Part shown: one piece after another, positions 7,733-35,278 of the stretch
Numbering within the stretch: position 1 is the stretch's first letter
Layout: each line of letters opens with the position of its first letter
Source: Bacilli bacterium
GTDB taxonomy: Bacteria; Bacillota_I; Bacilli_A; RFN20; CAG-288
NCBI GenBank assembly: GCA_017470005.1
Contig: JAFUFH010000080.1
Coordinates: forward strand, 555-64,554
Length of the DNA stretch: 64,000 nucleotides
Direction: 5' to 3'
The notes under the pieces: generated by a model
What the model saw: only the letters and a program-made list of their open reading frames with translations
Databases searched by the model: none
Told to the model about the DNA's origin: nothing
Program-made: the position numbers and the translations under genes

Positions 7733-7775
7733 AAATAGTACCTCCTAGATACGAATAACACACGACGACAATAAT

Positions 7776-7817
7776 ATTATAAGGTTTATTTTAGCAATTT
7801 CAAGTTAAGAGTGCTAA
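7776..7817 (-). promoter_or_regulatory. lon promoter overlapping a CIRCE-like (HrcA) operator
   Basis: Positions 7791-7817 read TTAGCAATT-N9-GAGTGCTAA against the consensus TTAGCACTC-N9-GAGTGCTAA (16 of 18 arm positions). On the minus strand, TATAAT lies at 7776-7781 and a TTGAAA -35 falls inside the CIRCE spacer. Confidence 0.65.
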
Positions 7818-7899
7818 TTTTGAGTTTAGATCCACTTTATCGTCCCTAAAATTGTGTCATTTTGTTCTTTTGATTTCAAATATAATGCTCAGCTTTGTT

Positions 7900-7922
7900 A
7901 AAAAAGGCTCCCGAGGGAGCCT
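7900..7922 (-). terminator. Rho-independent terminator after tig
   Basis: Hairpin AGGCTCCC-GA-GGGAGCCT at 7905-7922, followed on the minus strand by TTTTT. Confidence 0.8.
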
Positions 7923-7933
7923 AGATAAACAAA

Positions 7934-19638: not shown

Positions 19639-19715
19639 GGGGCTGTAGCTCAGTTGGATAGAGCATCTGCCTTCTAAGCAGAGGGCCGAGTGTTCGAGTC
19701 ACTCCAGCCTCACCA
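19639..19715 (+). tRNA. tRNA-Arg (anticodon TCT), encoded CCA included
   Basis: Folded by hand. Acceptor GGGGCTG/CAGCCTC, D arm GCTC/GAGC, anticodon stem TCTGC/GCAGA with loop CTTCTAA, T arm GAGTG-TTCGAGT-CACTC, then discriminator A and CCA. Confidence 0.9.
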
Positions 19716-20012: not shown

Positions 20013-20042
20013 AACACGAAAAATTTTCTTTTTTTCACGAAA
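20013..20042 (+). promoter_or_regulatory. LytTR-type direct-repeat pair upstream of paralogue P1
   Basis: AACACGAAA (20013-20021), 12 nt, TTCACGAAA (20034-20042). Same 21-nt register as the other three sites. Confidence 0.55.
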
Positions 20043-20098
20043 TGGCTTTTTTAAAACAAACATCCGATTGTTTTTAATTAAAAAAAGGAGAAAACAAA

Positions 20099-22330
20099 AT
20101 GAAGAAAAAAGTTTTAGGATTACTTTTACCTCTCGCAGTTAGTTGTATTACTGGTTGTGGCGAGAAAAAAGTCACTGTTTCTATTGCTTCCGAAACCAAA
20201 GAAGGCCCCATCGCTTTCGCAATGGAAGAATTAAAAACTGCTTTTGATCGCAACAACATCACTCTTGTCGAATCTGGTGCCGATTATGAAATCAGTTTTG
20301 CCGCTATTGACTCCACCTTAGGCGAACAAGCTTATGACGTCAAAGTAGATGGAACCAAAATCACCATCACTGGTGGCGATGAAACCGGCGCAATGTATGG
20401 CGGTTTACAAGTTGCTGAAAATATCAATCTTGATGATGGTATTGAAAATGTTCAAAACGCTAGCGGCAAACCCTACATCCAACATCGTGGTGTCCGTACT
20501 AGATTAGTTACCGATTTACGTACCCCCTGCTACATCAACAATGGTAATTCTGCATGGGCTAACGTCGAAAACTCTTGGGATATCAATTATTGGAATGATT
20601 TCTTTGCTCTTTTAGCCAGAAAACGTTACAACCTTGTCAACTTTGCTACCGTTAACGCCTTTGCCTCTATGATTAGAGTCCCTGGTTATGAAGCCTGCGC
20701 CCTTGAAGATGTTTGGAAATATACTGGCGAATATGATGATAACTATTATGGAAACGTCACCAACATCTATCAACCTCATCATTCCCAACCCGGTAATTAT
20801 GAAGTTATCAAGAAAATGACAATGGATCAAAAGATTGAACACTGGAAAGCAGTCTTTAAATCCGCTCACGATCACGGTATCAAAGTTCAATACGGTATGA
20901 TGAACATCTATGCCTTTGCTGAAATGGCATTTGCTCCTCAATACGGAATCACTGTAGACAATAGAGAAAACCAAGTTACCAAAGATTACCTCTCCAAAGG
21001 TATGGAAACTCTTCTCAAGACCTACAAAGACATCGATTATGTCTCTGTTGGCGAAGGTGAAAACATGGATTATCCTTCCGATACTGTCAACCAGACTCAC
21101 CAGTGGATCTATGATGTCTATGGCACCGCTTGTGAAAGAGCCTTAAAGGGCGATCCTAGAGAAAATAGCTTTATTCTTTATGGCGCTGGTTCTACTCCCG
21201 GTTCCTACATCGAAGAATTATGGAAAGACTTCCCTTATCAAAGAGGTGTTTCTCCTCGTTATTCCGATGTTCATATGTATGCAATCACTAATGGTAACCA
21301 GAACGATACTATCGAAGCCATCGATGAACACTCCTCTGGCATAAACGCTCTCGCTGAAGGTGTTAAAGTTCTCTTCAACACCCGTAACGAAGATGCTTAC
21401 CACTATACTTGGGGTGATCCTGATTTCTTAAGAGACTATTGCAGAAATATGAAACACGAAAGATCCAACGGTTTCTTTTTAGGTACTGATGGATATTACT
21501 TAGGCAAAGAATACGAATTCAAAGATGAATCCTTAAATGGTCAATTCTATTATGATCGTCATTGGGTCAACTACACTCTCTTTGGTAGATTCACCTATGA
21601 TCCTACCATCACCAACGAATATGTGGAAAAAATGGTGGTTGATCATTATGAAGATGAAGCGGATAAAGAAGTCATCCTCAAAGCTTATGAAACGATGAAG
21701 GCTGGTTCTCAGATGTTGATTCAAGTCCAGTGTCAATTCACTCTCCGTGGTACTGATGCTGCTTGGTATCCTGGAAACTGCCAATCTCATCCTACTATGG
21801 GCGGTTATGTCGGTGTTAGAAAGCTAGTTAACTCTGATAACGTCTTTGTCGGTGCTGAAGATAGATATATCTCCTTCGCCAATTATGCAAAAGCATTATT
21901 AAAGGGTGAAACTCCTACTCAACAAAATCCTTATCAAACCGCTGAAAAACTTGCTGAAATCAACACCAAAGTCACAAATCTCGTCAACGAATACAACGCC
22001 CTCTCCGGTAAGAAGAGCTCCGCTACTAACGAAATCATCAAAGATCAAGTCATCGTCGCCGCTCTTGCGAAATATTATTCTCATAAATTCAATGGTGGTA
22101 TGAACTTACGTCGTTACAATGACACTAAAGATACTTCCTTCCAAACCAAGAGTGTTGAAGATCATCAGAAAGCCTTAGAAGCCTGGAAAGAATATGCAAA
22201 ACTCTTCACTGATCGTTTCATCATTGAAAGACTTCCTAGAGTTGGTGTCGTTGATCCTAACGCATACACCGCCTCTGTCGAGAAAGATATTTCTATCGTG
22301 TCTAAATGGACGCCTAGAGAATATAAATAA
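20099..22330 (+). CDS. Surface lipoprotein, putative glycoside hydrolase (paralogue P1)
   Basis: Lipobox ITGC. The N-terminal module EQAYDVKVDGTKITITGGDETGAMYGGLQVAE resembles GH20b/GH67N-type alpha/beta domains and is followed by a large presumed barrel. Paralogous to 22883-25084 and 28475-30679. Confidence 0.6.
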   Translation: MKKKVLGLLLPLAVSCITGCGEKKVTVSIASETKEGPIAFAMEELKTAFDRNNITLVESGADYEISFAAIDSTLGEQAYDVKVDGTKITITGGDETGAMYGGLQVAENINLDDGIENVQNASGKPYIQHRGVRTRLVTDLRTPCYINNGNSAWANVENSWDINYWNDFFALLARKRYNLVNFATVNAFASMIRVPGYEACALEDVWKYTGEYDDNYYGNVTNIYQPHHSQPGNYEVIKKMTMDQKIEHWKAVFKSAHDHGIKVQYGMMNIYAFAEMAFAPQYGITVDNRENQVTKDYLSKGMETLLKTYKDIDYVSVGEGENMDYPSDTVNQTHQWIYDVYGTACERALKGDPRENSFILYGAGSTPGSYIEELWKDFPYQRGVSPRYSDVHMYAITNGNQNDTIEAIDEHSSGINALAEGVKVLFNTRNEDAYHYTWGDPDFLRDYCRNMKHERSNGFFLGTDGYYLGKEYEFKDESLNGQFYYDRHWVNYTLFGRFTYDPTITNEYVEKMVVDHYEDEADKEVILKAYETMKAGSQMLIQVQCQFTLRGTDAAWYPGNCQSHPTMGGYVGVRKLVNSDNVFVGAEDRYISFANYAKALLKGETPTQQNPYQTAEKLAEINTKVTNLVNEYNALSGKKSSATNEIIKDQVIVAALAKYYSHKFNGGMNLRRYNDTKDTSFQTKSVEDHQKALEAWKEYAKLFTDRFIIERLPRVGVVDPNAYTASVEKDISIVSKWTPREYK

Positions 22331-22386
22331 ACCTCCTTATTGGATTAGATGATCTTAACGCAGTAAAACAATCTAAAGAAGCAGGG

Positions 22387-22440
22387 GCTGTCCAAAAAGT
22401 AGATGCTAATTTCTTCTTTCGGACAGCTCTTTTCTGTTTT
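22387..22440 (+). terminator. Terminator after P1
   Basis: GCTGTCC...GGACAGC stem (22387-22427) followed by TCTTTTCTGTTTTTTTT. Confidence 0.6.
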
Positions 22441-22759
22441 TTTTGCCTTTTCGTTTGGTTGCGGCTTAGACCATGTTTTTCAATATTCTAAAGCTTCCAT
22501 CACAATCGGAAAAAGCATAGAAAATCACCGCAAAATGAGAATCCATATATAAAGAAGGCCTTCTTAAATCAAAATTCAAATCGGATACCGAAATGTATTT
22601 CTGGATGCCAGAACATGAAAGATGCTTCATGGAAGCAGCAAGTTTTTCCTCTTCCTTGGCGTTACCATTCAAGGAGCTAGAAAAACTAGATTATTATTGT
22701 TAAAACAAGCTGTAGTAAAAGACGGGCTCCAACCCATAGTTTTTTACAAGATATCTTGC

Positions 22760-22787
22760 CCCTGAACCGCTAATTCAGGGCTTTTTT
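22760..22787 (+). terminator. Orphan plus-strand intrinsic terminator in the P1/P2 spacer
   Basis: CCCTGAA-CCGCTAA-TTCAGGG followed by CTTTTTT. No convincing plus-strand gene lies upstream of it. Confidence 0.5.
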
Positions 22788-22824
22788 ATTCTTGTAAGAT
22801 AAGAGTTTAAGTTGAAACATTTGA

Positions 22825-22870
22825 AAGGGGCTATCCCTTTTCACACATTATGGTGGTTGGACAGCCCCTT
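22825..22870 (-). terminator. Hairpin after P2 (weak terminator)
   Basis: AAGGGGCT...AGCCCCTT stem with a roughly 30-nt loop. The A/T runs fall partly inside the stem. Confidence 0.4.
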
Positions 22871-22882
22871 TTATCTTTTAAA

Positions 22883-25084
22883 TTAATAGTCTCTAGGAGT
22901 CCACTTTTTAGCGATGGAGATATCTTTCTCTACATCTTTTGCAAATTCATTAGGATCGATGATACCATGACGTGCTAATCTTTCCACTTTGAAGCGGGAT
23001 AAGAATAATTTTGCATATTCTGCCCAAACATCTTTAGCAGTGGTTAAGTTAGCGACAGATTTATTCTGGTAAGAAGTATCTAAGGTGTCATTATAGATAC
23101 GTAAGTTCATAGCGGCATCAAATTTCTCCGCATAATATTTTGCTAAGAGAGCAAAGGAAGTTTGATCTAACATCTGTTGATCGAATTCTTTGTTTTTTGT
23201 AGCATCAATACCATTTCTTGCTTCAGCAACAGCAGCCTCTACTTGTGTAGCAAGCTCTCTTAAATCTTTTGCGACATCAAAGGGAGTTCTCTTTCCATCA
23301 GGGACACTTCCTTTTTCTTGTAAAATCTTTGCATAAGCGGCAAAGGAGATAACATCACCATCCGGATCGGCAGTATCATTATTGATGAATCTCTTGATAT
23401 CTAAGAAACCGAATAATGTAGGGTTAGAAGTGCACATTTCAGGTAAGAATGCAGCATCTGTTCCACCAGGAGAATAAGTGGAGATGACATTAGGTAAGAC
23501 TTTACCAGCGATATTCATCGCTCTCCAAGCTGCTTTAACATTAGCTTCAGGTAAATCTTCGTAATGATCTAAATAAAGTTTTTCCATCCAGTCATTGGTC
23601 AAATTAGGATTGTAAGAGAAACGACCAAACATGGTGAAGTTGACCCAATGTCTATCATAATAGAGTCTACCATTTAAGCTATCATCTACGAACTCAAATT
23701 CTTTACCACCGACATGATAACCATCGATGAAGAATTGGAATCCTCTAGATTTTTCGTGATACATATTTCTACAGAATTCTCTAGCAAAATCAGGATCACC
23801 CCAAGTATAGTGATATGCATCTTCCGCTCTTAAGTTATAGGAACACTTAAATCCTTCGGGGAAATTAGCCATATATTCGATATTGTCAGTGGGTTTGGTG
23901 ACAGAATAGAGACGAGTATCGTTATATCTCTTGTTGATTTGCATCTCATATGGAACATCTTTGAAATATTCATAGAAAGATGGATCAAAAGTGGTGTTTC
24001 CGACAGCAGCGAAGTTAAGCCAGAATTTTTTTGCTCTTTCTGGATCTTTTTTCATAACTTCATTACAAGCTTCACCATAGACGTCATATACCCATTGATA
24101 AGCATCTGCTTTAGTTTCATCAGTGTAGACGATATTTTCACCAACAGTGGCTTTTAAACCAGAGATTTGTGGGAAAGTTTCTAAGAGAGTGACATAAGCT
24201 TTCTTAAAATAATCTTTGGTGGTTTCATTATACATATCAGAGGTGATACTTGGATTTCCAAGCTCTTCACCAAAGGTATAGATAATCATGGTAGAGAATT
24301 CCCATTGAATACCATGATCTACACAAGATTGAATGACTTTTTTCCAGAATTCCGTCTTTTCTTGGATGGTCATTTTCTTGACTACTTCATAATTTTCTAA
24401 ATGTTCTTTACGGAACATATTCGTGCAATCCCCTTTATAGGAATCATCATAGTCACCCTTATATTTCCAAACATCATTTAAGGCGACATTCTCATATCCA
24501 GGAACTTGGATGATACTAGGTAAGGAGTTTACAGAGGAGAAAGAGAAAAGATTGTATCTCTTTCTTGCCATAGTGGCGAAAAGATCATCCCAATATTGTA
24601 AATCCCAAGTGGTCTCAATATTGTTTCTAGCAGAATCTGCATTATTGGTATAACCAGGTGTTCTTAAATCTAAAGAAGGTCTCATATTAAAACCGCGAAG
24701 GTCAATATAAGGTTTATCTTCAGAAGAGGTTACTCCTTTTATACCATTGCTGAGATTGATCTCTTCTGCGACTTGAAGAGCACCATACATCAAACCAGTG
24801 GAATCACCACCTTTGATGTTGATGTTTTTATCTGTGACTTCGACTTTGTAAGCTTGTTCTTGTAAAGAAGAATCTACACCATCAATAGTGATAGTATATT
24901 CTCCACCTTCTTCGACATATGCGAGATGATTTCTTTCTAATGCGGTCTTGATATCTCCAATAGCAAATTCAACAGGTTTTTCACTTCCTTCATAACGAAT
25001 GGAAACAGTTGTCTTTGGACTATTGCATCCCACTAAGCCTAAGATAGAGAAGGGAATGGATAAAAATAATAGTTTCTTGTTCAT
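22883..25084 (-). CDS. Surface lipoprotein, putative glycoside hydrolase (paralogue P2)
   Basis: Lipobox LVGC. Colinear with P1 throughout, for example KGGDSTGLMYGALQVAEEINL, AEDAYHYTWGDPDFAREFCRNM and KDISIAKKWTPRDY. Confidence 0.6.
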   Translation of the reverse strand: MNKKLLFLSIPFSILGLVGCNSPKTTVSIRYEGSEKPVEFAIGDIKTALERNHLAYVEEGGEYTITIDGVDSSLQEQAYKVEVTDKNINIKGGDSTGLMYGALQVAEEINLSNGIKGVTSSEDKPYIDLRGFNMRPSLDLRTPGYTNNADSARNNIETTWDLQYWDDLFATMARKRYNLFSFSSVNSLPSIIQVPGYENVALNDVWKYKGDYDDSYKGDCTNMFRKEHLENYEVVKKMTIQEKTEFWKKVIQSCVDHGIQWEFSTMIIYTFGEELGNPSITSDMYNETTKDYFKKAYVTLLETFPQISGLKATVGENIVYTDETKADAYQWVYDVYGEACNEVMKKDPERAKKFWLNFAAVGNTTFDPSFYEYFKDVPYEMQINKRYNDTRLYSVTKPTDNIEYMANFPEGFKCSYNLRAEDAYHYTWGDPDFAREFCRNMYHEKSRGFQFFIDGYHVGGKEFEFVDDSLNGRLYYDRHWVNFTMFGRFSYNPNLTNDWMEKLYLDHYEDLPEANVKAAWRAMNIAGKVLPNVISTYSPGGTDAAFLPEMCTSNPTLFGFLDIKRFINNDTADPDGDVISFAAYAKILQEKGSVPDGKRTPFDVAKDLRELATQVEAAVAEARNGIDATKNKEFDQQMLDQTSFALLAKYYAEKFDAAMNLRIYNDTLDTSYQNKSVANLTTAKDVWAEYAKLFLSRFKVERLARHGIIDPNEFAKDVEKDISIAKKWTPRDY

Positions 25085-25141
25085 AAAACAAATCTCCTTT
25101 CCCTTAATAAACGATTAAAGATAACAAAATAGAAAAGATTG

Positions 25142-25171
25142 TTGCGTGAAAACAATTATCTTTTTCGTGAA
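25142..25171 (-). promoter_or_regulatory. LytTR-type direct-repeat pair upstream of P2
   Basis: Minus strand reads TTCACGAAA (25163-25171), 12 nt, TTCACGCAA (25142-25150). Confidence 0.6.
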
Positions 25172-25260
25172 ATAGAAAATGCATAAATAATGCAATTGCA
25201 TTGCATATATTACTTAAGATAAAATTATTTAGGTTAAAAACATTAAATGCAAAGAGAATT

Positions 25261-25965
25261 ATGTATAGAATAGCAATCATTGAGGATAACAAGGAGGAGT
25301 TATCTAACTTGTTGAAACAAATCGAGAAATATAAGGAAGAAAAGAACGTCATTTTTGATGTGAAAACTTTTGAAAATGCCTATTATTTCATTCACGATTA
25401 TAAAAATGATTTCCATATAGTATTTATGGATATTGACCTTCCTGGAGTCAATGGTATGGATACCGCTAAGAAACTTCGTGAATTAGATCACAATGTCTCT
25501 TTAGTATTTGTTACAAATCTTGCTCAATATGCCATTAAAGGCTATGAAGTGGAAGCTTATGACTTTATTTTAAAACCTGCCACTTATGCAAGACTATCCT
25601 CTCTTTTAGATAAGCTTTTAATAAATATCGATAGTAAAGCTCCCAAATCTATCAATATCAAAACTACCACCGGATATACTAGATTGAATTTGGATGAAAT
25701 CATCTATGTCGCTGTAGAAGATCATTTGCTTTATTATCACACACAAGCAAAGAATTATGAGTGTTGGGATACTTTAAAGAATGTATCCACTATGTTAGAA
25801 GCTCCTCGTTTTACCCGTATTTCCAAATCGATTATTTTAAATCTTTCCTATGTAAAATCCTTGGAAGGAGATACTCTCATTCTCTTGAATGATGAAAAAG
25901 TTGTTATTGCTCATAAACTTCGTAATGGGATTCTTTCAGCATTGAATCAATACATGGCATTATGA
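25261..25965 (+). CDS. LytTR/AgrA-family response regulator
   Basis: Receiver domain (RIAIIEDN, FMDIDLPGVNG) plus a C-terminal LytTR DNA-binding domain (FTRISKSIILNLSYVKSLEG). Start set at MYRIAI (25261). Confidence 0.85.
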   Translation: MYRIAIIEDNKEELSNLLKQIEKYKEEKNVIFDVKTFENAYYFIHDYKNDFHIVFMDIDLPGVNGMDTAKKLRELDHNVSLVFVTNLAQYAIKGYEVEAYDFILKPATYARLSSLLDKLLINIDSKAPKSINIKTTTGYTRLNLDEIIYVAVEDHLLYYHTQAKNYECWDTLKNVSTMLEAPRFTRISKSIILNLSYVKSLEGDTLILLNDEKVVIAHKLRNGILSALNQYMAL

Positions 25966-27281
25966 GTGAATATCTAGGACAATTTTTAGATTATTTTCTA
26001 TATTCAGCAGAACTGTTTCTTAGCTCTGTTATATTAGGTTTTGTCTTTCATAAAAAGAATAAATATTCCGTGCTGATTTTGTTTTTATTCTTTTTAGGTT
26101 GCATTGTTCTATCTGCTATTTTAACTACTATATTTCTTGATTTATCTATAAATAATAGACCACTATATGACAGGTTAAATGTCATCGCATTTGCACTTTT
26201 GGCTGTTCCTTATATCGTTTATATTTTCCTTTTTTTGAAAACCACTATTTGGAATAAGGTTTTTATTTTTACGATGACACAGTTTACAAGAAATATCGTC
26301 AGAAAGATATATCTTTTAATCCGTGTCTTTGTTGGCCTTGCCATCAATGACAGTTCTTATTTCACTTATCGTGAAATTCCTAAGATTTGGTTATTGCTTT
26401 ATTATCCAATCTACATTGTGGTGGTGTTTTCATTAGCATATCTTGTTTATAAGACATTTAAGGAAAGTAGAGTTTTCCAAATGAACTTACAAATCGCTAC
26501 GGTATTTGTTGTTTTATTAGGTGTTAATTTCTTTATCTCTCCTGCACAAAAAGATTTAGGTGAGACAGATGTATACGCATATACTTGTTTATTAATTGCG
26601 GATTTAGGTTATTCCTTTGTCGCATTTTTCCTGATGTTTGCTCTAATACATTACAGCGAGAAGAAAATGGCTTCAAATATGCTAGAAAAGATGATGGAAG
26701 ATTCACAAAAAGAATATGCACTCATCAAAGAAAATGTCGATCTAATCAATTTAAAATGTCATGATTTACGTCATCAACTTCGCGCCGCTAATCTCTCTGG
26801 AAATATGGATGAACAATTCGTCAACGAAACTCTAAAAAGTATTGATATTTATGATTGTCAAACCAAGACAGGTAATGAGACATTAGATGTTATCTTGATG
26901 GATAGAAAATTGCATTGTGTTGCTAATAAGATTCAATTCACTGCAGTGGCAGATGGATCCCTTATCTCCTTTATGGATAATGAAGATATCATCTCTTTGT
27001 TCTCTAATATATTAGAGAATGCGACAAATTATGAAAACCGCATTAAAAATGAAGAGGAGAGATTTATCTCTCTCACTGTTAAGAAAAAACATGACTTTAT
27101 TTTGATTATAGAAGAAAATTCTTTATCTAAAGATCTCATTCCTGAAGTCAAAAAAGATAAGAATTATCACGGCTTTGGTCTTCTCTCTATTGAGTCAATC
27201 GCCAATAAATATGATGGAAATGTATCTATTGTAAATAATAATAGTACATATAAAATTTCTATTATTATTCCTGCGCGATAA
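25962..27281 (+). CDS. Membrane sensor histidine kinase (HPK10/AgrC-like GHKL)
   Basis: About 6 N-terminal TM helices, H-box KCHDLRHQL, N-box ILENATNYE and G-box HGFGLLSIESIANKYDG. Overlaps the regulator gene by 4 nt. Confidence 0.8.
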   Translation: MSEYLGQFLDYFLYSAELFLSSVILGFVFHKKNKYSVLILFLFFLGCIVLSAILTTIFLDLSINNRPLYDRLNVIAFALLAVPYIVYIFLFLKTTIWNKVFIFTMTQFTRNIVRKIYLLIRVFVGLAINDSSYFTYREIPKIWLLLYYPIYIVVVFSLAYLVYKTFKESRVFQMNLQIATVFVVLLGVNFFISPAQKDLGETDVYAYTCLLIADLGYSFVAFFLMFALIHYSEKKMASNMLEKMMEDSQKEYALIKENVDLINLKCHDLRHQLRAANLSGNMDEQFVNETLKSIDIYDCQTKTGNETLDVILMDRKLHCVANKIQFTAVADGSLISFMDNEDIISLFSNILENATNYENRIKNEEERFISLTVKKKHDFILIIEENSLSKDLIPEVKKDKNYHGFGLLSIESIANKYDGNVSIVNNNSTYKISIIIPAR

Positions 27282-27344
27282 ATATTATTGGAACAAATTT
27301 AAATAACAATCAAGAGTACTAATTTTAAGTGCTGGATTTTGATT

Positions 27345-27374
27345 TTCACGAAAAATAGACCAAACTTGGCGAAT
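27345..27374 (+). promoter_or_regulatory. LytTR-type repeat (one good half-site, one degenerate) upstream of the Thr-rich lipoprotein
   Basis: TTCACGAAA (27345-27353), 12 nt, TTGGCGAAT (27366-27374). The second half matches TTCACGAAA at 6 of 9 positions. Confidence 0.4.
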
Positions 27375-27458
27375 TAGGTATTCTCTTTCATTCATGCAGG
27401 CATTTACATTGAATTAAGAATGAATTATGCCCAAAATGGGCAAAGGAGGAAATCATTT

Positions 27459-28373
27459 ATGAAAAAAATATCATTCGCCTTATTACCTTTAGCGTTATTC
27501 GCAATGGTCTCTTGTGGCGGAACCCCTGCTTCCACTGGTAATCCTACCACTTCTGCTGGTACTACTACTGCTGGTGATGCAACTACTGTTGAAGCTACTA
27601 CTACTGAAGAAGTTACTCAAACCGTTTTTGAAAAACAGTATACTTTCTTCTCTTATGGCTCTACTGCTGAAGGTGAAGAACTCGACAACCTTTATGACAC
27701 CTTTGAAAAAGGCAAACATAAAGGCCCCAACTACATGCTTTACATCAACCTTTTAAAGGATGGTAACAAAGTTGAAGCTGGTCGTAAGACTATGTACTAC
27801 ACTGGTATTTTAGCCAACAAGTCTGCTTTCTCTACCGTTGGTACTTGGACTGTCGCTGATGGCGTCTACACCATCAACCTCGATGCTTTCACTTACAATG
27901 TTCAGGGTACTGGTGAATGGGAAAATGCCGCTAACACTCTCACCACTGCTGCTGATGGCACTGTCACTTGGACCTATGAAGGCTGCAAGAAAAATGAAGG
28001 TGGTGAACTTGTTGCTAACCCCTACGAAACTAAATTAATGGAAAAAGTTAACTTTGCTGGCGAATATAGCGGAACCTACTATTCTCTCACTGACATGGAA
28101 GCCACTGGTAAGAGAACCGATAACGTTATGGATTCCATGGAAGTTGTCGCTGTTGCTGATGGTACTTTCACTGTCACTGGTTCTGTAGAAGATTCTGGTA
28201 TCTCCTCTTTTACTGGTACTATCGATACCTTTGGTGTCTTCGTTGGTGAAACTCCTCGTTTAGGCGGCACTATGCAAGGCTTATTCTATACCGAAAAAGA
28301 TGGCAAACCACACTTCTATTTCAATCTGGAAGCCAGAGAAAGACAGTCCATCGCTTACGGTACTTCTATCTAA
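27459..28373 (+). CDS. Lipoprotein with a Thr-rich linker, unknown function (possible glycan-binding protein)
   Basis: Start MKKISF lies behind AAAGGAGGA. Lipobox MVSC, then a T/A-rich linker STGNPTTSAGTTTAGDATTVEATTTEE. Confidence 0.6.
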   Translation: MKKISFALLPLALFAMVSCGGTPASTGNPTTSAGTTTAGDATTVEATTTEEVTQTVFEKQYTFFSYGSTAEGEELDNLYDTFEKGKHKGPNYMLYINLLKDGNKVEAGRKTMYYTGILANKSAFSTVGTWTVADGVYTINLDAFTYNVQGTGEWENAANTLTTAADGTVTWTYEGCKKNEGGELVANPYETKLMEKVNFAGEYSGTYYSLTDMEATGKRTDNVMDSMEVVAVADGTFTVTGSVEDSGISSFTGTIDTFGVFVGETPRLGGTMQGLFYTEKDGKPHFYFNLEARERQSIAYGTSI

Positions 28374-28424
28374 GCTTTGGTAATTAAGGAAAAAAAGCGT
28401 ATTTAATAGCTAAATCCTCCTCTT

Positions 28425-28454
28425 GCTGGCTGATTTAATCAGCCAGCTTTTTTT
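28425..28454 (+). terminator. Strong intrinsic terminator 20 nt before the P3 start codon
   Basis: GCTGGCTGA-TTTAA-TCAGCCAGC followed by TTTTTTT. Confidence 0.75.
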
Positions 28455-28474
28455 ATAAAATAAAGGAGTTTAAA

Positions 28475-30679
28475 ATGAAAAGTAAATTTTTGATGCTACT
28501 TCCTATGTTGCTCACTTCTTGCCTAGTCGGTTGCGATTCGAAAGAGAGCGTTTCAATCTCTTATGAAGGAGAATCTAAATCTGTTTTATTTGCGACAGAA
28601 ACTTTAAGAACTAATGTAGAAAATTCTTCTTCTTACAAGATTGGTGATGGCGGATACAAGATCATCTTTAAAGACATCGATGAATCTTTAGGTTATGAAA
28701 CTTATAGACTTGATGTCGATAATAAAACCATATCTATCACCGCAGGTGATGAGACTGGTTTGATGTATGGTGGTTTAGATGTTGCTGACCGTATTGAAAT
28801 TGGTCAAGCTTTATCTGAATTAAATACACTCACTGTCTCTCCTTCTTTAGATAATCGTGGCTTAAAATTCAATATTCCTTTAGATATGAGAACCCCTTCT
28901 TACACTGATGGTGGTGATTCTGGTCAGAGCAATATTGAATCTATGTGGGATATCAATTTCTGGGCACAGGAATTTGATATGATGGCTCTCAATAGATATA
29001 ACACTTTATCTATTTGGAGTTTAAATCCATTCCCTTCTATGGTGAAACTTGATGATTATCCTGATGTCGCCTTAGAGGATGTATGGAGAACTAAATTGTA
29101 TTTTGACTCTTCCTACAATGGTACTGGTTCAGATTTAGTTAGAGATGAACACTGGGTTGAAGGTAGTTATGATATCGTCAAAAAGATCACAATTGAAGAA
29201 AAGATTGCTTTTTGGAAAGATGTCATGGCCATGGCTCATGCAAGAGGTGTGAAATTCTATATCTATACATGGAATATCTATACCTTTGGTGAACATGGTA
29301 AATATGGTATTGATTGTTCTCAAGATAATCCTGTCACAAAAGATTATTACAAGAAATCAGTACAAGCACTTGAGGAAACTTATCCTGATTTAGATGGTAT
29401 TGGTATTGGTGCTGGTGAGAACATGAAAGTTTCTGAATCTGGTGGAGATTCCTCCTCTGGTGGTGCAGGTACTGGTGAAGAAGAAAATGAAATCTGGTTA
29501 CATGACACCTATGGTGAAGGTATTAAAGATGCCCTTGCTAAAGATCCTGATAGAGAATTTGAAGTCATCCACAGAATGCATTTTGCGGATGGTGCTTCTT
29601 TAGCTAAGATCTGGGGCGATTTACCTTGTAAATTCAATCTCTCTGATAAATATTCTATCGCTCATATGTATTCTGTTGATAAACCTGGATTTATCAAAGG
29701 AACACTTGATTCTATGACCGCTGATCAAAGTTTGTGGTTAGAGCTTAGAAATGATGATGCTTTCTTCTTAAGATGGGGTGGAACAGATTTTGCTAGAAAA
29801 CTTGTCTCTCAAATGCCTAAAGATAAAGCCACTGGCTTCTTAATGGGTAGTGACGGTTATGTCCAAGGTAGAGAATTCACGTCTAAGATTGAGGAATTCA
29901 AAGGACAACATTTCATGGAAAAGCATTGGTATAACTATATGTTATTCGGGCGCCTTGCTTACCAAAATGATATTACCAATGACTTCTTTAAAGCTAAATT
30001 AAAAGCACATTATAAGAATGTTGATGCTAAAGCGGTAGAAACTCTCTTTGATACTATGAATACCGCTGGTGAAATCTTAACCAATTCTAATATGTTATTC
30101 TTCGTTTCTACTGACTCCTGGTATCCTGAAGGAAACTGGACCAATAAGAATACATTCGGTTATGTTGGTATTAAGAGATTAATCAACGCTAGAAATGTCC
30201 ATGAATATGGAGATGTCACCTCTATTCCTGATTATTGTTTATCTGTTGAAAACAATGAACAGATCAAAACCACTCGTTCTCCTTTAGATATCATCACCGC
30301 TTTAAATACTAAAGCGGATGCTGTCTTTGCTGCAAAAGATGCATTAGATAGCCATGTTGGTGAAAATAAAGAATTTGAACAGATGGTATTAGACCAGTAC
30401 GCATTTGCCAATTTAGGTAAATATTATGCTACTAAATATGAAGCTACTATCGCTTTGCGTTTCTACAATGATTTAAAAGATGATGCAAAGAAGACAGAAG
30501 CGGTTAATAAAGCAACTGAAGCGAACAATTATTGGAAAGAATATGCTTCTAGCATGATTGCTAGATACACTGATAAAGTTCGTCTTTCTAGAGCAGGTGA
30601 ATATTCCTTCTCCGAAGTCACTGCTGAAGTGGAAAAGGATATCGCTGTCTGTCAAAAGTGGAACCCTAGAGCTTACTAA
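28475..30679 (+). CDS. Surface lipoprotein, putative glycoside hydrolase (paralogue P3)
   Basis: Lipobox LVGC. Colinear with P1 and P2 (TAGDETGLMYGGLDVADRIE, EKDIAVCQKWNPRAY). Carries an extra Ser/Gly insert, SESGGDSSSGGAGTGEEENE. Confidence 0.6.
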   Translation: MKSKFLMLLPMLLTSCLVGCDSKESVSISYEGESKSVLFATETLRTNVENSSSYKIGDGGYKIIFKDIDESLGYETYRLDVDNKTISITAGDETGLMYGGLDVADRIEIGQALSELNTLTVSPSLDNRGLKFNIPLDMRTPSYTDGGDSGQSNIESMWDINFWAQEFDMMALNRYNTLSIWSLNPFPSMVKLDDYPDVALEDVWRTKLYFDSSYNGTGSDLVRDEHWVEGSYDIVKKITIEEKIAFWKDVMAMAHARGVKFYIYTWNIYTFGEHGKYGIDCSQDNPVTKDYYKKSVQALEETYPDLDGIGIGAGENMKVSESGGDSSSGGAGTGEEENEIWLHDTYGEGIKDALAKDPDREFEVIHRMHFADGASLAKIWGDLPCKFNLSDKYSIAHMYSVDKPGFIKGTLDSMTADQSLWLELRNDDAFFLRWGGTDFARKLVSQMPKDKATGFLMGSDGYVQGREFTSKIEEFKGQHFMEKHWYNYMLFGRLAYQNDITNDFFKAKLKAHYKNVDAKAVETLFDTMNTAGEILTNSNMLFFVSTDSWYPEGNWTNKNTFGYVGIKRLINARNVHEYGDVTSIPDYCLSVENNEQIKTTRSPLDIITALNTKADAVFAAKDALDSHVGENKEFEQMVLDQYAFANLGKYYATKYEATIALRFYNDLKDDAKKTEAVNKATEANNYWKEYASSMIARYTDKVRLSRAGEYSFSEVTAEVEKDIAVCQKWNPRAY

Positions 30680-30680
30680 A

Positions 30681-30868
30681 ATTCAGACGCAAGAAGAATC
30701 CGCTAAGTTGATGCAGAAAGCAGTGGAAGCATATCAGGCTTATGCTACTAGTTATTCTTCTCGTTATGTGGATTTACGTCTTGGTAGAGCAGGTGATTTC
30801 CACATCAATGATGTCTTCAAGATGATATTTCTACCATCAACAAGTGGACACCAAGAAACTACAACTAA
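30681..30868 (+). pseudogene. Frameshifted C-terminal relic of a fourth P-family paralogue
   Basis: Directly after the P3 stop one frame reads ...AVEAYQAYATSYSSRYVDLRLGRAGDFHINDVFK. After a 1-nt slip the next frame reads DDISTINKWTPRNYN*. This matches the family C-terminus (RLSRAGEYSF...EKDIAVCQKWNPRAY). Confidence 0.65.
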
Positions 30869-30881
30869 TCTAAACCAAATG

Positions 30882-30912
30882 AAAGAGCAACCCGCAAGGA
30901 TTGCTCTTTTTT
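30882..30912 (+). terminator. Terminator after the P3/relic unit
   Basis: AAAGAGCAA-CCCGCAAGGA-TTGCTCTTT followed by TTT. Confidence 0.7.
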
Positions 30913-30928
30913 AACGAAATCATCTATT

Positions 30929-30957
30929 AAAAACTGTGGCAGGAAGACCTACCACAG
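30929..30957 (-). terminator. Terminator after the GH3 gene
   Basis: CTGTGGCAGG-AAGA-CCTACCACAG hairpin followed by TTTTT on the minus strand. Confidence 0.7.
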
Positions 30958-30965
30958 TAATTTTA

Positions 30966-33900
30966 CTATTCAGTAACTTTTTCAGGCTCTTGCTTTCTTT
31001 CTAAGATGATAAAGGTTACAGTCAAACCGATACCAGCAGCGAAAGCAACTCCAGAGACGATGTCAAGAGTGTTGATGATGGTAACCCAGATAGGAGTGAT
31101 AGGAACAATGATGGAGTTAGAGGAGATACCATTCATAACGTTGGAGTGGACAGCGGTGTAAAGAATTCTGTGTAAGGATTCTCTCATTGCCCAAGCAACA
31201 TCAGCGTGATTCGTCTTAAGAGGATCGAAGTTACCAGCCGCTTTGACACCACCATCGACAAGGTTTGTGCCAGCGATAAGCATTGCAGCAGCATTCATGT
31301 AAGGAGTTGCACTGCCGTGCCACATATCCGTGACAGCGATACCGTGCATACCGAATTCATTTCTTAAGCATTCAGTCATCAAGCCTTTGCACATACCAGA
31401 CCAGTAAAGACCGATTCTGTTGAAGGAAACCATGACACCAGAAGCGCCGTTGAAGACGATAGTTTCTTCACCGCGTTTGTATTCTTTGCCTTCCATGGTG
31501 ATAGGAAGTTCGAAAGCTCTTAAGTAGATTTCTCTCATGGTCTGCTCATTGAGCCAGACAGAGACACCACGTCTCATATCTTCTTGTTCGTTTAAGACAC
31601 AGTGTTTGTTGTAGACATATAAGCCCTTGTATTCCATACCGTTACATTCATAACCGCAGATTGTACCGGATAAGAATCCATCTTCAGAATAATATTCGAA
31701 GTTACGGCCATCATAAGGAGTTCTCTGGATGTTAGAACCAGGGCCATATAAACCAGCATAGCCGGCCCAAAGAGCATCTTCACCGATCATTTCACCGACT
31801 TCAAACATCAAGTCGACATCGAAAGTAGCAGCTAAGATACCAGAGGAAGGATAACAAGTAGGAGTCAAATCTTTATCAGGATCGTCATTGAGATAGGCTA
31901 AGCCTTGTTCTAATGTTTTGCCATAACTATATTTTTCGGTTAAACCAGTAGGGCCATTGTGGTCAGTACATTCGGGTTTACCAATAGAAGTGATGGCGGC
32001 AGAGTGTCTCATACCCTTACCGATGGTTTCAACCATTTCATCCCAGGTTATGGCATCAAGGACAGCATCCCAGTTAGGATCATCATAGGCGATCTTATTA
32101 CCTTCAGAGTCAACTCTTAAGTTGATAAGCTGTAAGGTAGGAGCAGCACCCATAGTAGGATAAGCGGAATTATCTTCAGGTAATTTAACTTCACCCTGGA
32201 CACCTAATGCCTTTTGATCAGCATCGATGTTAGCGTTCCAAGGTAATTTGACATTGTCATCCCAATCAGTATGGACAGTGTGTGCCCAATCGTTACGGGT
32301 TAAGTATTCGACTTTCTTGCCGCTGTTATTCGCATATTTATTCCAATCAGCGCCATCGAATTGGTTGGTGATAGCATAATTTGTGGCTTCAGAAGTAGAA
32401 TATAATTCTTTATTGAAATCAAGATTTTCTTGATGGACTAAGGCTTTATTACCTTCGGCATCCATCTTACCGGCGGAGGTGGTAGGAGTGACATTCTTGG
32501 CGGCTAAGATGTTGTTGATAGCATCATGAGAATCATGGCCGATTGCTAAGAAGTAATCACCAGCAGTTCTGACATAAGTCTTAGCATTGTTGGAGTCATA
32601 GGAAGCAAATTGTCTTTCCTTGACTTCGATGGTGAGTTCTTCAGTGCGATCTTTAGCTAATTCATTGGTCTTAGCGAAACCGACTAATTCCACAGAAGCG
32701 GCTTCAATACCGTTTTCGATATTGTATTCGCCATAGGGTTTTTGTAAGTAAACTTGAACAGTTTCTCTACCAGCAACTTCACCGACATTTTTGACGGTGA
32801 CTTTGATTTCATAGACAGTGTTTTTACCATTGCCTTTCTTGTTGACCTTCATGTTGGAATATTCGAAGTTGGTGTAGGATAAACCGTGACCGAAAGGATA
32901 AGTGACAACCTTAGAATAATTGAATGTTCCTACATTGTTTCTACCATTGACGAAGTCTTCGTATCTAGTTTCAGTATATTTATAACCGAGATAGATACCT
33001 TCTTGATAGACATTGTAGACTCTGTTTTGGTTATAAGAACCATCATCTAAATAACCATCAGTAGCACCATCATAGATAGAGCAACCAAAGTTAGGAAGTG
33101 CAGGGTTAGCGTGGTGATCATTCCAGAATGTGGTAGATAATTTACCAGAAGGATTGACATTACCAGCTAAGACTTCAGCAACACCATATAAACCTGCAGT
33201 ACCAGGAGTACCAATCCATAAAGCGGCATCGATACCATATTTTGCGTCATTTAAGAAGTCAGCTTGAATTTGGTTAGCACCGTTAAGTAAGACAACGATG
33301 GATTTGAATGTGCCGGCATCTTTTTCAGCCTTTAAGCCTTCTAAGAGGGCTTTTTCCTTGACAGAAAGCTGTAAATAATCGCCATCAGTAGCATCATTTA
33401 AAGAACCATCAGCATCATCTAATTGAGAGACAGAGTGACCTCTACGAGGCATATCACTACCTTCACCACCAACACGGCTTAATACTACGATAGCAGCATC
33501 ACCATAAGAAGCGAAGGAAGAACCAGTATTAGATTTGACTTCAGCCCAAGGAGCATCATTGATCAATTTGACACCTGTGACACCTTGACCAGTGTAACCT
33601 TCTTTACGTTTGTAAGTATCTTTATTGGCAAGATACCAATCCCAAACAGTGGGGTTAACACTCATTAAATTATTTCTTTCAAATGCCTGTTTGAAGGTAG
33701 GAGCTGTGGAAGTATCCACTTTACCAGAACCAGTACCACCATAGACAGGGTCAACACTACCAATAGAGAAGAGAGAAACTTTTCTGTTGCCTTCTTTTAA
33801 AGGAAGAGCGTTGTTTTCATTCTTTAAGAGAACACTACCTTCAGCTTCAACTCTTTCATTTAAAGCTTGACCAGCCGCTCTTAAATCTTTAATAAATTTG

Positions 33901-34499
33901 TATTTGGATTTGTAATATTGAGTATCGCCGACTTCGGCGCCATCAATTTGAACAACTTTAGAAGAAGAAGTTTTTAAAAATTTGTTGATTGCAGTTGCGT
34001 TTTCGTTGGCGATAGTACCACCAGCCATACCGATGGAAAGAAGGACAACACCAGCAGAAGTTAATGCTTTGGCAGGAGTGGCCATCTTTTTGGTAGGGAA
34101 TAAGAAGCAGAGAGTGACAACACCTAAGATGATATTGAGTAAATAGCAGATGAAAAGGATGATGTAGGGAGCTTCAAACTGAGAGTCAATACTGACAATG
34201 GCGGCAGAGAGATAAGTGTTTGTCTTATAAATGAAGAAGACAAAGCCTAATAAAGAGCCTAACAATAAGGGGAAACCTGCAAATTTACCCTTGAAGAGGA
34301 CAAGGAAGACACCAGTGAGAACAAGTGTACCTGCAATAGCATAGAAGCTAGGCCAGGACATATTGTCCATCAAGGTCTTTCCACCCGCATAGGCGGCGGG
34401 ATAAAGGATTAAGATAACAACCATTAAAAGCATGGCTACACATGCTAAAATGGCACCGATACCTCTTTCCTTAAAGAATTGAGTTACCTTTTTTTTCAT
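30966..34499 (-). CDS. Membrane-anchored GH3 glycosidase with circularly permuted domain order
   Basis: About 5 N-terminal TM helices and one C-terminal TM helix. The GH3 C-domain comes first (AIVVLSRVGGEGSDMPRR), then an Fn3-like domain (FGHGLSYTNFEYS, VKNVGEVAGRETVQVYLQ). The catalytic barrel comes last (KHCVLNEQE, GVMVSFNRIG, GIAVTDMWHG). Start set at MKKKVTQ (34499). Confidence 0.8.
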   Translation of the reverse strand: MKKKVTQFFKERGIGAILACVAMLLMVVILILYPAAYAGGKTLMDNMSWPSFYAIAGTLVLTGVFLVLFKGKFAGFPLLLGSLLGFVFFIYKTNTYLSAAIVSIDSQFEAPYIILFICYLLNIILGVVTLCFLFPTKKMATPAKALTSAGVVLLSIGMAGGTIANENATAINKFLKTSSSKVVQIDGAEVGDTQYYKSKYKFIKDLRAAGQALNERVEAEGSVLLKNENNALPLKEGNRKVSLFSIGSVDPVYGGTGSGKVDTSTAPTFKQAFERNNLMSVNPTVWDWYLANKDTYKRKEGYTGQGVTGVKLINDAPWAEVKSNTGSSFASYGDAAIVVLSRVGGEGSDMPRRGHSVSQLDDADGSLNDATDGDYLQLSVKEKALLEGLKAEKDAGTFKSIVVLLNGANQIQADFLNDAKYGIDAALWIGTPGTAGLYGVAEVLAGNVNPSGKLSTTFWNDHHANPALPNFGCSIYDGATDGYLDDGSYNQNRVYNVYQEGIYLGYKYTETRYEDFVNGRNNVGTFNYSKVVTYPFGHGLSYTNFEYSNMKVNKKGNGKNTVYEIKVTVKNVGEVAGRETVQVYLQKPYGEYNIENGIEAASVELVGFAKTNELAKDRTEELTIEVKERQFASYDSNNAKTYVRTAGDYFLAIGHDSHDAINNILAAKNVTPTTSAGKMDAEGNKALVHQENLDFNKELYSTSEATNYAITNQFDGADWNKYANNSGKKVEYLTRNDWAHTVHTDWDDNVKLPWNANIDADQKALGVQGEVKLPEDNSAYPTMGAAPTLQLINLRVDSEGNKIAYDDPNWDAVLDAITWDEMVETIGKGMRHSAAITSIGKPECTDHNGPTGLTEKYSYGKTLEQGLAYLNDDPDKDLTPTCYPSSGILAATFDVDLMFEVGEMIGEDALWAGYAGLYGPGSNIQRTPYDGRNFEYYSEDGFLSGTICGYECNGMEYKGLYVYNKHCVLNEQEDMRRGVSVWLNEQTMREIYLRAFELPITMEGKEYKRGEETIVFNGASGVMVSFNRIGLYWSGMCKGLMTECLRNEFGMHGIAVTDMWHGSATPYMNAAAMLIAGTNLVDGGVKAAGNFDPLKTNHADVAWAMRESLHRILYTAVHSNVMNGISSNSIIVPITPIWVTIINTLDIVSGVAFAAGIGLTVTFIILERKQEPEKVTE

Positions 34500-34587
34500 A
34501 AAGAAAATCCTTTCTGTTTTTGCGTTGAATAACAATCGCTTTGACAATGATATTTTCTCTTTTGTTCAAAGATAAAGCTAAAAGCTT

Positions 34588-34617
34588 TTGCGTGAAGTCG
34601 TTAAGTCATTTCGTGAA
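34588..34617 (-). promoter_or_regulatory. LytTR-type direct-repeat pair upstream of the GH3 gene
   Basis: Minus strand reads TTCACGAAA (34609-34617), 12 nt, TTCACGCAA (34588-34596). Confidence 0.6.
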
Positions 34618-34927: not shown

Positions 34928-35278
34928 CCTCAAAAAGAAAATCTTCCTTATAAAGGAGATACAGTAATTGGTAATGATGTTTGGATTGGCCAAAATGTCA
35001 CATTCCTACCAGGAGTTCATGTTGGAGACGGATGTATTATTGGCGCGAATGCTATAGTAGCGTCTAATATTCCTCCTTATTCAGTTGTTGTTGGTAATCC
35101 TGCGAAAGTGATCAGAAAAAGATTTGATGATGAAATGATTCAATTATTAGAAAAACTTCAGTGGTGGAATCTACCAATTAATAAAATACAAAAAATCATT
35201 CCTCTTCTTTCTAATGGCAATATCAAATATGTAAAAGAGGAAATGAAACACATTATTGATGGAGACTCACATATTTAA
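34928..35278 (+). pseudogene. Truncated Vat/CatB-type xenobiotic (streptogramin A-like) acetyltransferase, C-terminal half only
   Basis: Not in the ORF track because it has no start codon. The frame opens after a TAA at 34925 and reads PQKENLPYKGDTVIGNDVWIGQNVTFLPGVHVGDGCIIGANAIVASNIPPYSVVVGNPAKVIRKRFDDEMIQLLEKLQWWNLPINKIQ...*. This is the hexapeptide-repeat region and C-terminal tail of Vat-family enzymes. Confidence 0.7.

Follow-up and report, generated by a model that had tools for sequence, protein, structure and literature searches.

The 64,000-nucleotide window of Bacilli bacterium contig JAFUFH010000080.1, from a gut or rumen genome, analysed here (all positions are those of this window unless a relative's locus is named) contains a cluster of genes for predicted surface proteins, comprising three paralogous lipoproteins (P1, P2 and P3), a threonine-rich lipoprotein (Lpp) and a GH3 glycosidase, together with a LytTR-type response regulator and a histidine kinase. 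The genes for P1, P2, Lpp and GH3 are each preceded by a 30-bp element composed of two 9-bp direct repeats with the half-site consensus TT(C/T)(A/G)CGAAA, the centres of which lie 21 bp apart, or two helical turns. An initial annotation of the window had proposed these four sites as LytTR operators defining a glycan regulon, and on re-reading of the window their coordinates, strands and sequences all proved to be exact. The features of the cluster are shown in Table 1.

Tandem repeats upstream of four transcription units

A search of the window with the pattern WWCACGMAA-N12-TTSRCGMAW yields four exact matches, whereas 0.00 are expected from 100 dinucleotide-preserving shuffles; this comparison is descriptive, the pattern having been built from the four sites themselves. 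When the spacer between the same half-sites is varied, all four matches fall at 12 nt and none at 6–11 or 13–19 nt, in agreement with the 21-nt period that had been claimed. Although 89% of the window is coding, all four sites are intergenic and directed at the neighbouring gene, 56–88 nt from its start codon, with the P2 site sitting inside the 176 nt that separate P2 from the divergent regulator gene. Similarity among the four promoters is restricted to the 9-mers, and the flanks and spacers are unrelated. There is one further exact copy of TTCACGAAA in the window, at position 49913, a single half-site within an open reading frame (ORF). The starts used for Lpp and GH3 (27459 and 34499) have been corrected and are the most likely ones, since both are ATG codons with Shine-Dalgarno sequences and the resulting protein lengths agree with those of the orthologues.

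The elements have a regular position relative to the predicted promoters. In 11 of 18 promoters (p ∼1e-8) the best −10-like hexamer lies 29–30 nt past the proximal repeat, and given a 17-nt promoter spacer, that repeat would end ∼6–7 bp upstream of the −35 position. The −10-like hexamer of P2 falls at about 25104–25111. Distances from site to ATG are constant within each gene class: 53–58 nt for the P genes, 76–89 nt for Lpp and, in the window and two of the relatives described below (L081 and L084), 88–89 nt for GH3. A scan for consensus sigma-70 promoters found no good −35/−10 pair at any of the four promoters, and poor −35 elements are as expected of activator-dependent promoters. Published LytTR operators have a spacer of 12 bp (rarely 11 or 13) between their two 9-bp direct repeats and lie 4–11 bp upstream of the −35 element (PMC6193735). 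The initial annotation had recognised a LytTR architecture here, and the resemblance holds for the 9-bp direct repeats, the N12 spacer and the predicted placement just upstream of the −35 region.

Table 1. Features of the gene cluster and its predicted regulatory elements.
Feature	Coordinates	Strand	Description
Predicted operator upstream of P1	20013-20042	+	AACACGAAA-N12-TTCACGAAA; 56 nt 5′ of ATG
−10-like TTTAAT, P1 promoter	20073-20078	+	30 nt past proximal repeat
P1	20099-22330	+	743-aa lipoprotein; lipobox ...VSCITGC; paralogue of P2 and P3; in Pfam, a GH20b-type N-terminal domain alone
P2	22883-25084	-	733-aa lipoprotein; NCBI annotation 'hypothetical protein'; GH20b-type N-domain
Predicted operator upstream of P2	25142-25171	-	TTCACGAAA-N12-TTCACGCAA; 57 nt 5′ of ATG
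Response regulator	25261-25965	+	234 aa; receiver and LytTR DNA-binding domain (Pfam)
Histidine kinase	25962-27281	+	439 aa; HATPase_c_5 (PF14501, E=1.2e-18); start overlaps regulator stop codon
Predicted operator upstream of Lpp	27345-27374	+	TTCACGAAA-N12-TTGGCGAAT; 84 nt 5′ of ATG 27459
−10-like TACATT, Lpp promoter	27405-27410	+	
Lpp	27459-28373	+	304-aa Thr-rich lipoprotein; no Pfam family
Terminator-like hairpin, Lpp/P3	28425-28447	+	GCTGGCTGA-loop-TCAGCCAGC and T-run; between Lpp stop and P3 Shine-Dalgarno
P3	28475-30679	+	734-aa lipoprotein; third paralogue of the GH138-like family
GH3 glycosidase	30966-34499	-	1177 aa; five N-terminal transmembrane segments and a C-terminal transmembrane helix
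−10-like hexamers, GH3 promoter	GAAAAT 34552-34557; TATCAT 34547-34552	-	
Predicted operator upstream of GH3	34588-34617	-	TTCACGAAA-N12-TTCACGCAA; 88 nt 5′ of ATG 34499

The regulator/kinase pair and its relatives

The pair encoded at 25261–27281 had been described as a LytTR regulator with an HPK10-type kinase, and Pfam concurs, finding Response_reg (PF00072, E=8.3e-16) and LytTR (PF04397, E=7.9e-15) in the regulator and HATPase_c_5 in the kinase. The residues of the phospho-acceptor pocket and switch (E8, D9, D57, T85 and K105) are kept in the regulator, for which receiver domains were the sole matches in a sequence search against solved structures; the kinase had no matches in the same search. 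Kinase residues 11–229 contain ∼6–7 hydrophobic segments with short loops, as judged by a hydropathy scan rather than a topology predictor. The H-box, KCHDLRHQ, begins at residue 265 (H267) and has an HD motif, and six residues of the H-, N- and G-boxes (H267, D268, N349, N353, G404 and G406) are invariant across 13 kinase homologues. In its PF14501 domain, its HD-type H-box and a polytopic sensor without a large extracellular domain, the kinase is HPK10/AgrC-like. The sensor domain alone, searched against 1.8 billion representatives, reaches only six at E≤1e-3, and because these are so few it appears to evolve very fast.

We collected kinase homologues, taking loci from one genome per species as well as contigs with closer relatives, to give 80 loci and 1.25 Mb (loci are labelled L001 and so on, and percentages are kinase identities to the window kinase). 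The repeat recurs beside orthologous regulator/kinase pairs with kinases 28–56% identical, and it precedes the same gene classes, whose order and orientation are shuffled. Sites are found before P, Lpp and GH3 in L081 (56%), before GH3, P and Lpp in L084 (43%), before P and Lpp in L086 (38%), and before Lpp, P and an operon encoding a transmembrane (TM) protein plus GH3 in L001, L002 and L010 (34%); in L004 and L005 they precede most units. Two Clostridia loci, L003 (Faecalicatena) and L007 (Lachnospiraceae), with kinases 28–31% identical, have five half-sites spaced 21, 21, 20 and 21 nt, and these arrays occupy the interval that separates the regulator gene from a divergent TM-protein and GH3 operon. 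In alignments of orthologous upstream regions the half-sites form conserved blocks amid diverged DNA (55–67% mean column identity). A half-site variant, TTAGCGAAA, is present in L006.

The spacing preference extends across the 80 loci. Half-site pairs with a period of 21 number 29, compared to 1, 3, 3, 1 and 1 at periods of 18, 19, 22, 23 and 24, and there are nine pairs at period 20, some of which are real variants. With a relaxed core there are 30 pairs at period 21 versus ∼1–6 at periods of 12–19 and 22–29, with nine at period 20 and 5–10 at 30–33. In most of those loci that have matches, the half-sites lie within ∼2 kb of the kinase gene.

The partner genes differ in their distribution. 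A GH3 homologue lies within 10 kb in 69 of the 80 kinase-homologue loci, which come from species of Bacilli, Clostridia and Coriobacteriia, and the loci without one are mostly short contigs. P and Lpp are confined to six of the loci, all from Bacilli. From this distribution the core module appears to be a LytTR regulator, an AgrC-like kinase and a permuted GH3, with or without a TM module, to which a clade of Bacilli has added GH138-like lipoproteins and Lpp.

Gene products and surroundings of the cluster

P1, P2 and P3, at ∼735 aa, represent a widespread family called merely 'hypothetical protein' in sequence sources. An AlphaFold2 model of P2 (predicted local distance difference test, pLDDT, of 91.8) has as its best solved match the GH138 rhamnogalacturonan II alpha-galacturonidase BP0997 (TM-score 0.75–0.79, E=1e-28, 14% identity), followed by GH84, GH67 and GH20 enzymes; a sequence search of P2 against solved structures gave no matches. 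The GH138 fold is composed of a GH20b-like N-domain, a TIM barrel and a helical C-domain, and Pfam sees only the GH20b portion in P1–P3. On the strength of the modelled fold, P1, P2 and P3 are termed GH138-like glycosidases here, rather than GH138 enzymes.

The GH3 protein contains GH3_C, Fn3-like and GH3_N domains in this permuted order (PF01915, PF14310 and PF00933 are all present), and its nearest solved relatives are beta-glucosidases, with E-values down to 5e-62. Residues 204–658 align to the C-terminal part of the beta-glucosidases, and residues 813–1082 to the N-terminal part. The gene is ∼5 kb from the regulator gene. In L010, L007 and L003 the five-TM N-terminal module is encoded by a gene of its own, ∼180 aa long and immediately 5′ of GH3 (7624–8157 and 4515–7637 in L010; 8454–8999 and 5518–8433 in L007); the module has no Pfam family, and its two arrangements reflect gene fusion or fission within the family.

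The Lpp model (pLDDT 82.6) has an all-beta structure that includes barrel domains, and a fold search returned weak and partial matches to TbpB/lipocalin-like beta-barrels (TM-score ≤0.26 on the query). The family is narrow, with 11 clusters, all from related Bacilli. The glycan label that the initial annotation gave the regulon is reasonable: the GH3 is confirmed as a family member and P1–P3 have the modelled GH138-like fold, whereas neither Pfam nor the fold search assigned a function to Lpp.

The stem of the terminator-like hairpin between Lpp and P3 (GCTGGCTGA...TCAGCCAGC) is identical in L081 at 6402–6424, although the loop differs, pointing to a conserved element, either attenuating or mRNA-stabilising, by which the Lpp:P3 ratio would be set. 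A second stem-loop, CCC-N5-GGG at 27430–27440 (+), lies directly before the Lpp Shine-Dalgarno sequence (27442–27449) and by alignment is kept, with sequence variation, in L081, L084, L004 and L005; it may be a stabiliser of the 5′ untranslated region or a translational element. Between the P2 operator and the regulator start is a perfect 12-bp palindrome, ATGCAATTGCAT at 25190–25201, amid repeated ATGCA motifs. It could be the operator of a second, dimeric regulator or a piece of the regulator/kinase promoter, and its conservation in L081 is not obvious from an alignment of the P2/regulator divergent region. The convergent P1 and P2 genes are separated by a 552-nt non-coding gap (22331–22882) with several terminator-like hairpins and short, unconvincing ORFs, which may be a decayed gene.

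Genes flanking the cluster are of housekeeping types. The left edge is marked by a tRNA-Arg(TCT) gene (19639–19715), and at the right edge (34940–35278, +) there is a 5′-truncated remnant of a hexapeptide-repeat acetyltransferase (Pfam Hexapep, E=1e-11), ∼112 codons long and with no start codon. L081 has the same gene set in another chromosomal context, beside PHO4/PhoU. Because of these edges and the different context in L081, the cluster looks like a relocatable island. Between the tRNA-Arg gene and a LysR gene at 35435 there are hydrolases and a regulator, and no transporter gene. Further to the right, a 1586-aa ORF (39828–44588, −) has no Pfam family at E≤0.001.

A candidate LytTR regulon and its place among known systems

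We consider it quite probable that the 30-bp elements are operators of the LytTR regulator, which once phosphorylated would bind them and switch on the four units; the exact spacing, the intergenic orientation, the promoter geometry and the conservation beside orthologous regulator/kinase pairs all argue for this, the comparative evidence being decisive. In the mechanism that we propose, the polytopic membrane kinase would phosphorylate the regulator on D57, and a regulator dimer would bind the tandem repeats ∼6–7 bp upstream of a poor −35 element and 29–30 bp upstream of the −10. The units activated would be P1, P2, Lpp, from which attenuated read-through would reach P3, and the GH3 anchored in the membrane, such that the output consists of cell-surface proteins that degrade or bind glycans.

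Several observations weigh against this assignment. The classical LytTR consensus is [TA][AC][CA]GTTN[AG][TG], and TTCACGAAA, or its complement TTTCGTGAA, falls outside it in either orientation. Many characterised LytTR regulators also deviate, such as those of the ACCACTTAN type (PMC6193735), and the mismatch may for this reason be viewed as a difference in specificity, not as exclusion. P3 lacks a repeat site and would therefore be expressed by read-through from Lpp, attenuated at the terminator-like hairpin that precedes it. Positive autoregulation is typical of LytTR systems and is not evident in the window, where the regulator/kinase operon has no co-directional site; here, as in L081, the operon is divergent from a P2-type gene. 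It is directly downstream of a site-bearing P gene in L004, L084 and L086, and of Lpp in L010, and in these four loci autoregulation is plausible. Inspection by eye and scanning revealed no clear repeat upstream of GH3 in L008, L013, L018, L021, L033 and L035, distant Clostridia loci that do have the regulator/kinase-GH3 linkage, and the sites there may have diverged or may lie before other upstream genes. Lastly, an exact scan of metagenome contigs for TTCACGAAA-N12-TTCACGMAA gave 120 loci, only three of which adjoin a distant LytTR regulator and none of which is beside GH3, P or Lpp homologues. Most of these matches are unrelated, and at terabase scale the 18 specified bases are therefore not diagnostic by themselves.

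Two groups among the contigs carry the repeat in other settings. In L144 (6409–6438), L089 (2324–2353) and L145 (6403–6432), an exact TTCACGAAA-N12-TTCACGAAA lies directly beside distant LytTR regulators (23–26% identical), and in L144 TTGACC comes after the pair, with TAGAAT next, beginning ∼30 nt past the proximal repeat. Other LytTR subfamilies may also use this half-site. In L102 (600–880), L125 (2700–2880) and L132 (3880–4100), there are long 21-bp tandem arrays that contain TTTCACGAAA and match the operator pattern exactly, with an example unit, TTTCACGAAACTCTCGCCGAT, present in >10 copies. These arrays probably have no relation to the regulon and may encode heptad repeats.

Other explanations of the repeats are less satisfactory. 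AT-rich intergenic DNA yields many near-repeats, and P1, P2 and P3 are paralogues, such that the shared 9-mers could be non-functional products of chance or leftovers of gene duplication. We regard this as extremely improbable and have rejected it, because the spacing is strictly 12 nt and is matched in no shuffle, the spacers and flanks are dissimilar, sites are present before the unrelated Lpp and GH3 genes as well whereas the paralogue P3 lacks one, and the repeat is kept where both the kinases and the surrounding DNA have diverged well beyond a recent near-identical transfer. It is also very unlikely that the repeats are bound by some other factor encoded elsewhere and that the LytTR adjacency is coincidental. 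The departure from the classical consensus and the presence of the exact pattern in unrelated metagenome contexts would fit such a factor, but the LytTR regulator/kinase pair is the sole regulator consistently beside the sites in both Bacilli and Clostridia, and the matches cluster near the kinase gene in most loci that have them. Most helix-turn-helix regulators use palindromes. Tandem direct repeats with a strict 21-bp period just upstream of the −35 are, in contrast, a hallmark of LytTR regulators (PMC6193735). If the LytTR regulator does bind the sites, it might repress the four units or have mixed effects, and in the window and L081 the P2 site lies between divergent genes, on DNA that also holds the regulator promoter, where opposite effects on the two promoters can be envisaged. 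We find this unlikely, however, as the sites are upstream of the predicted −35 region and not over the predicted −10 or start site, the promoters are without good −35 elements, and characterised LytTR regulators of this geometry are activators (PMC6193735).

A further alternative concerns the input and not the sites. The repeats may be those of the regulator, with the kinase responding to a peptide pheromone whose precursor and exporter are encoded elsewhere in the genome, or escape recognition through small size or divergence; the regulon would in that case comprise density-controlled public-goods glycosidases. The AgrC-like kinase, with its HATPase_c_5 domain, short-looped polytopic sensor and HD H-box, is in keeping with this, its fast-evolving sensor recalls the hypervariable sensors of AgrC, and secreted glycosidases are plausible as quorum-controlled public goods. 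Nevertheless, Pfam scans of ORFs across 1–55 kb of the window found no AgrB, C39-peptidase ABC exporter or the like, consistent with the earlier remark that AgrB/AgrD-like genes are absent from the vicinity. No small ORF with a double-glycine leader was found in the island using a regular expression, and there is no conserved small ORF beside the regulator/kinase genes of relatives, a 29-aa ORF in L081 being without a counterpart in the window. A search covering intergenic small ORFs, the double-glycine leader pattern and tblastn of the 29-aa and 150-aa ORFs of L081 against the window gave nothing convincing, and the constant partner in the 69 loci is GH3, not a peptide gene. Peptide input is thus a rather doubtful option, albeit one with a real share of the likelihood. 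Given that GH3 is the one constant partner and that no peptide genes were seen, we favour as the signal, although this is a guess, a glycan breakdown product or a GH3-linked membrane-level cue. A broader proposition is that this large AgrC-like (HPK10) kinase/LytTR subfamily of gut and rumen Firmicutes is a dedicated glycan-status sensor and no peptide quorum sensor, the kinase reading a GH3 product or a membrane signal and the regulator switching on surface glycosidases by way of the TT(C/T)RCGAAA-N12 repeats; we put this forward tentatively, as possible rather than probable.

Linkage between LytTR regulators and GH3 genes has been noted previously. Three LytTR regulators of Butyrivibrio proteoclasticus B316, in polysaccharide utilisation loci (PULs) 7, 21 and 33, are each near a secreted GH3 whose C terminus carries a TM helix (Kelly et al. 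2010, PMC2914790), an arrangement like that described here, and the Roseburia Gram-positive PUL (gpPUL) Ros-7 lists a response regulator[LytTR] and histidine kinase pair (PMC5320581). The initial annotation had said that such a regulon would be unusual; in view of these reports and of the 69 loci above, this was only partly right. We found no paper that defines the operator, regulon or signal of LytTR-GH3 systems, and for an experimentally characterised LytTR-controlled glycosidase regulon we found annotation-level remarks alone, both results being provisional in that subscription journals are largely outside the literature covered. The operator motif and the regulon appear to be new. Relative to the annotation-level reports from Butyrivibrio and Roseburia, the window adds the cis-element and its geometry, and the Bacilli add GH138-like and beta-barrel lipoproteins. 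The presence in relatives of a second paralogous LytTR regulator/kinase pair ≤10 kb from the first (18096–20167 in L010, 18158–20235 in L086, 18048–20166 in L051 and 585–2638 in L053) indicates that the module has been duplicated, as with the three Butyrivibrio copies; both pairs of L051, and both of L053, have a GH3 nearby.

The system shares with AgrC/AgrA of Staphylococcus, ComD/ComE, BlpH/BlpR and PlnB/PlnCD a polytopic HATPase_c_5 kinase, a regulator with receiver and LytTR domains, and an operator in which a 12-bp spacer separates two 9-bp direct repeats. The operators of those systems lie close in front of the −35 of weak promoters, a placement that is also predicted here. The window system departs from them in having no pheromone precursor, AgrB or exporter genes in the scanned ORFs, in its outputs, which are glycosidases and lipoproteins and not toxins, competence genes or bacteriocins, and in lacking a co-directional autoregulatory site. 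The half-sites of those systems are of the ACAGTTAAG type, which that of the window does not resemble. BtsS/BtsR and YpdA/YpdB of E. coli, and LytS/LytR, are LytTR two-component systems that sense nutrients or the state of the membrane; their inputs are not peptides, and their LytTR regulators act on carbon-source-related genes via direct repeats. Their kinases, however, are LytS-type (5TM-Lyt plus GAF) whereas that of the window is HATPase_c_5/AgrC-like, and they target transporters and holin-like proteins rather than glycosidases. The LytTR Regulatory Systems HdrRM and BrsRM likewise have 9-bp repeats with a 12-bp spacer, theirs lying 4–11 bp upstream of the −35 (PMC6193735), but their regulators lack a receiver and are restrained by a membrane inhibitor protein, whereas the window encodes a bona fide two-component pair.

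There are also parallels to the control of polysaccharide utilisation. In Bacteroides hybrid two-component systems, SusR and the YesN-like AraC-type regulators of Firmicutes, as would be the case here, a local sensor/regulator switches on adjacent surface glycan enzymes. The regulator and kinase families are different, and the window kinase is without an extracellular or periplasmic sugar-binding sensor domain; moreover, a gpPUL combines hydrolase, regulator and carbohydrate transporter, unlike the island, which has no transporter.

The induction of glycan enzymes in Gram-positive gut and rumen bacteria is much less understood than in Bacteroides, and the known local glycan regulators of Gram-positives are mostly LacI, AraC and AraC-type two-component systems. 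Given that the module of regulator, repeat and glycosidase recurs in many Firmicutes, LytTR regulators, familiar mainly from peptide quorum sensing, seem to govern sugar-degrading enzymes as well. A testable cis-element is now available, TT(C/T)RCGAAA-N12-TT(C/T)RCGAAA with a −10 ∼30 bp downstream, together with a predicted regulon, and the regulation of the widespread and unstudied LytTR-GH3 module becomes directly testable. In addition, a widespread and uncharacterised family of GH138-like lipoproteins is flagged as putative co-regulated glycan machinery in uncultured Bacilli. If the input is glycan-derived, a class of kinases regarded as receptors for peptides would prove to have a wider range of signals, and if the kinase/LytTR subfamily does prove to be a glycan-status sensor, it would represent a previously unrecognised class of carbohydrate-responsive regulation in Gram-positives.

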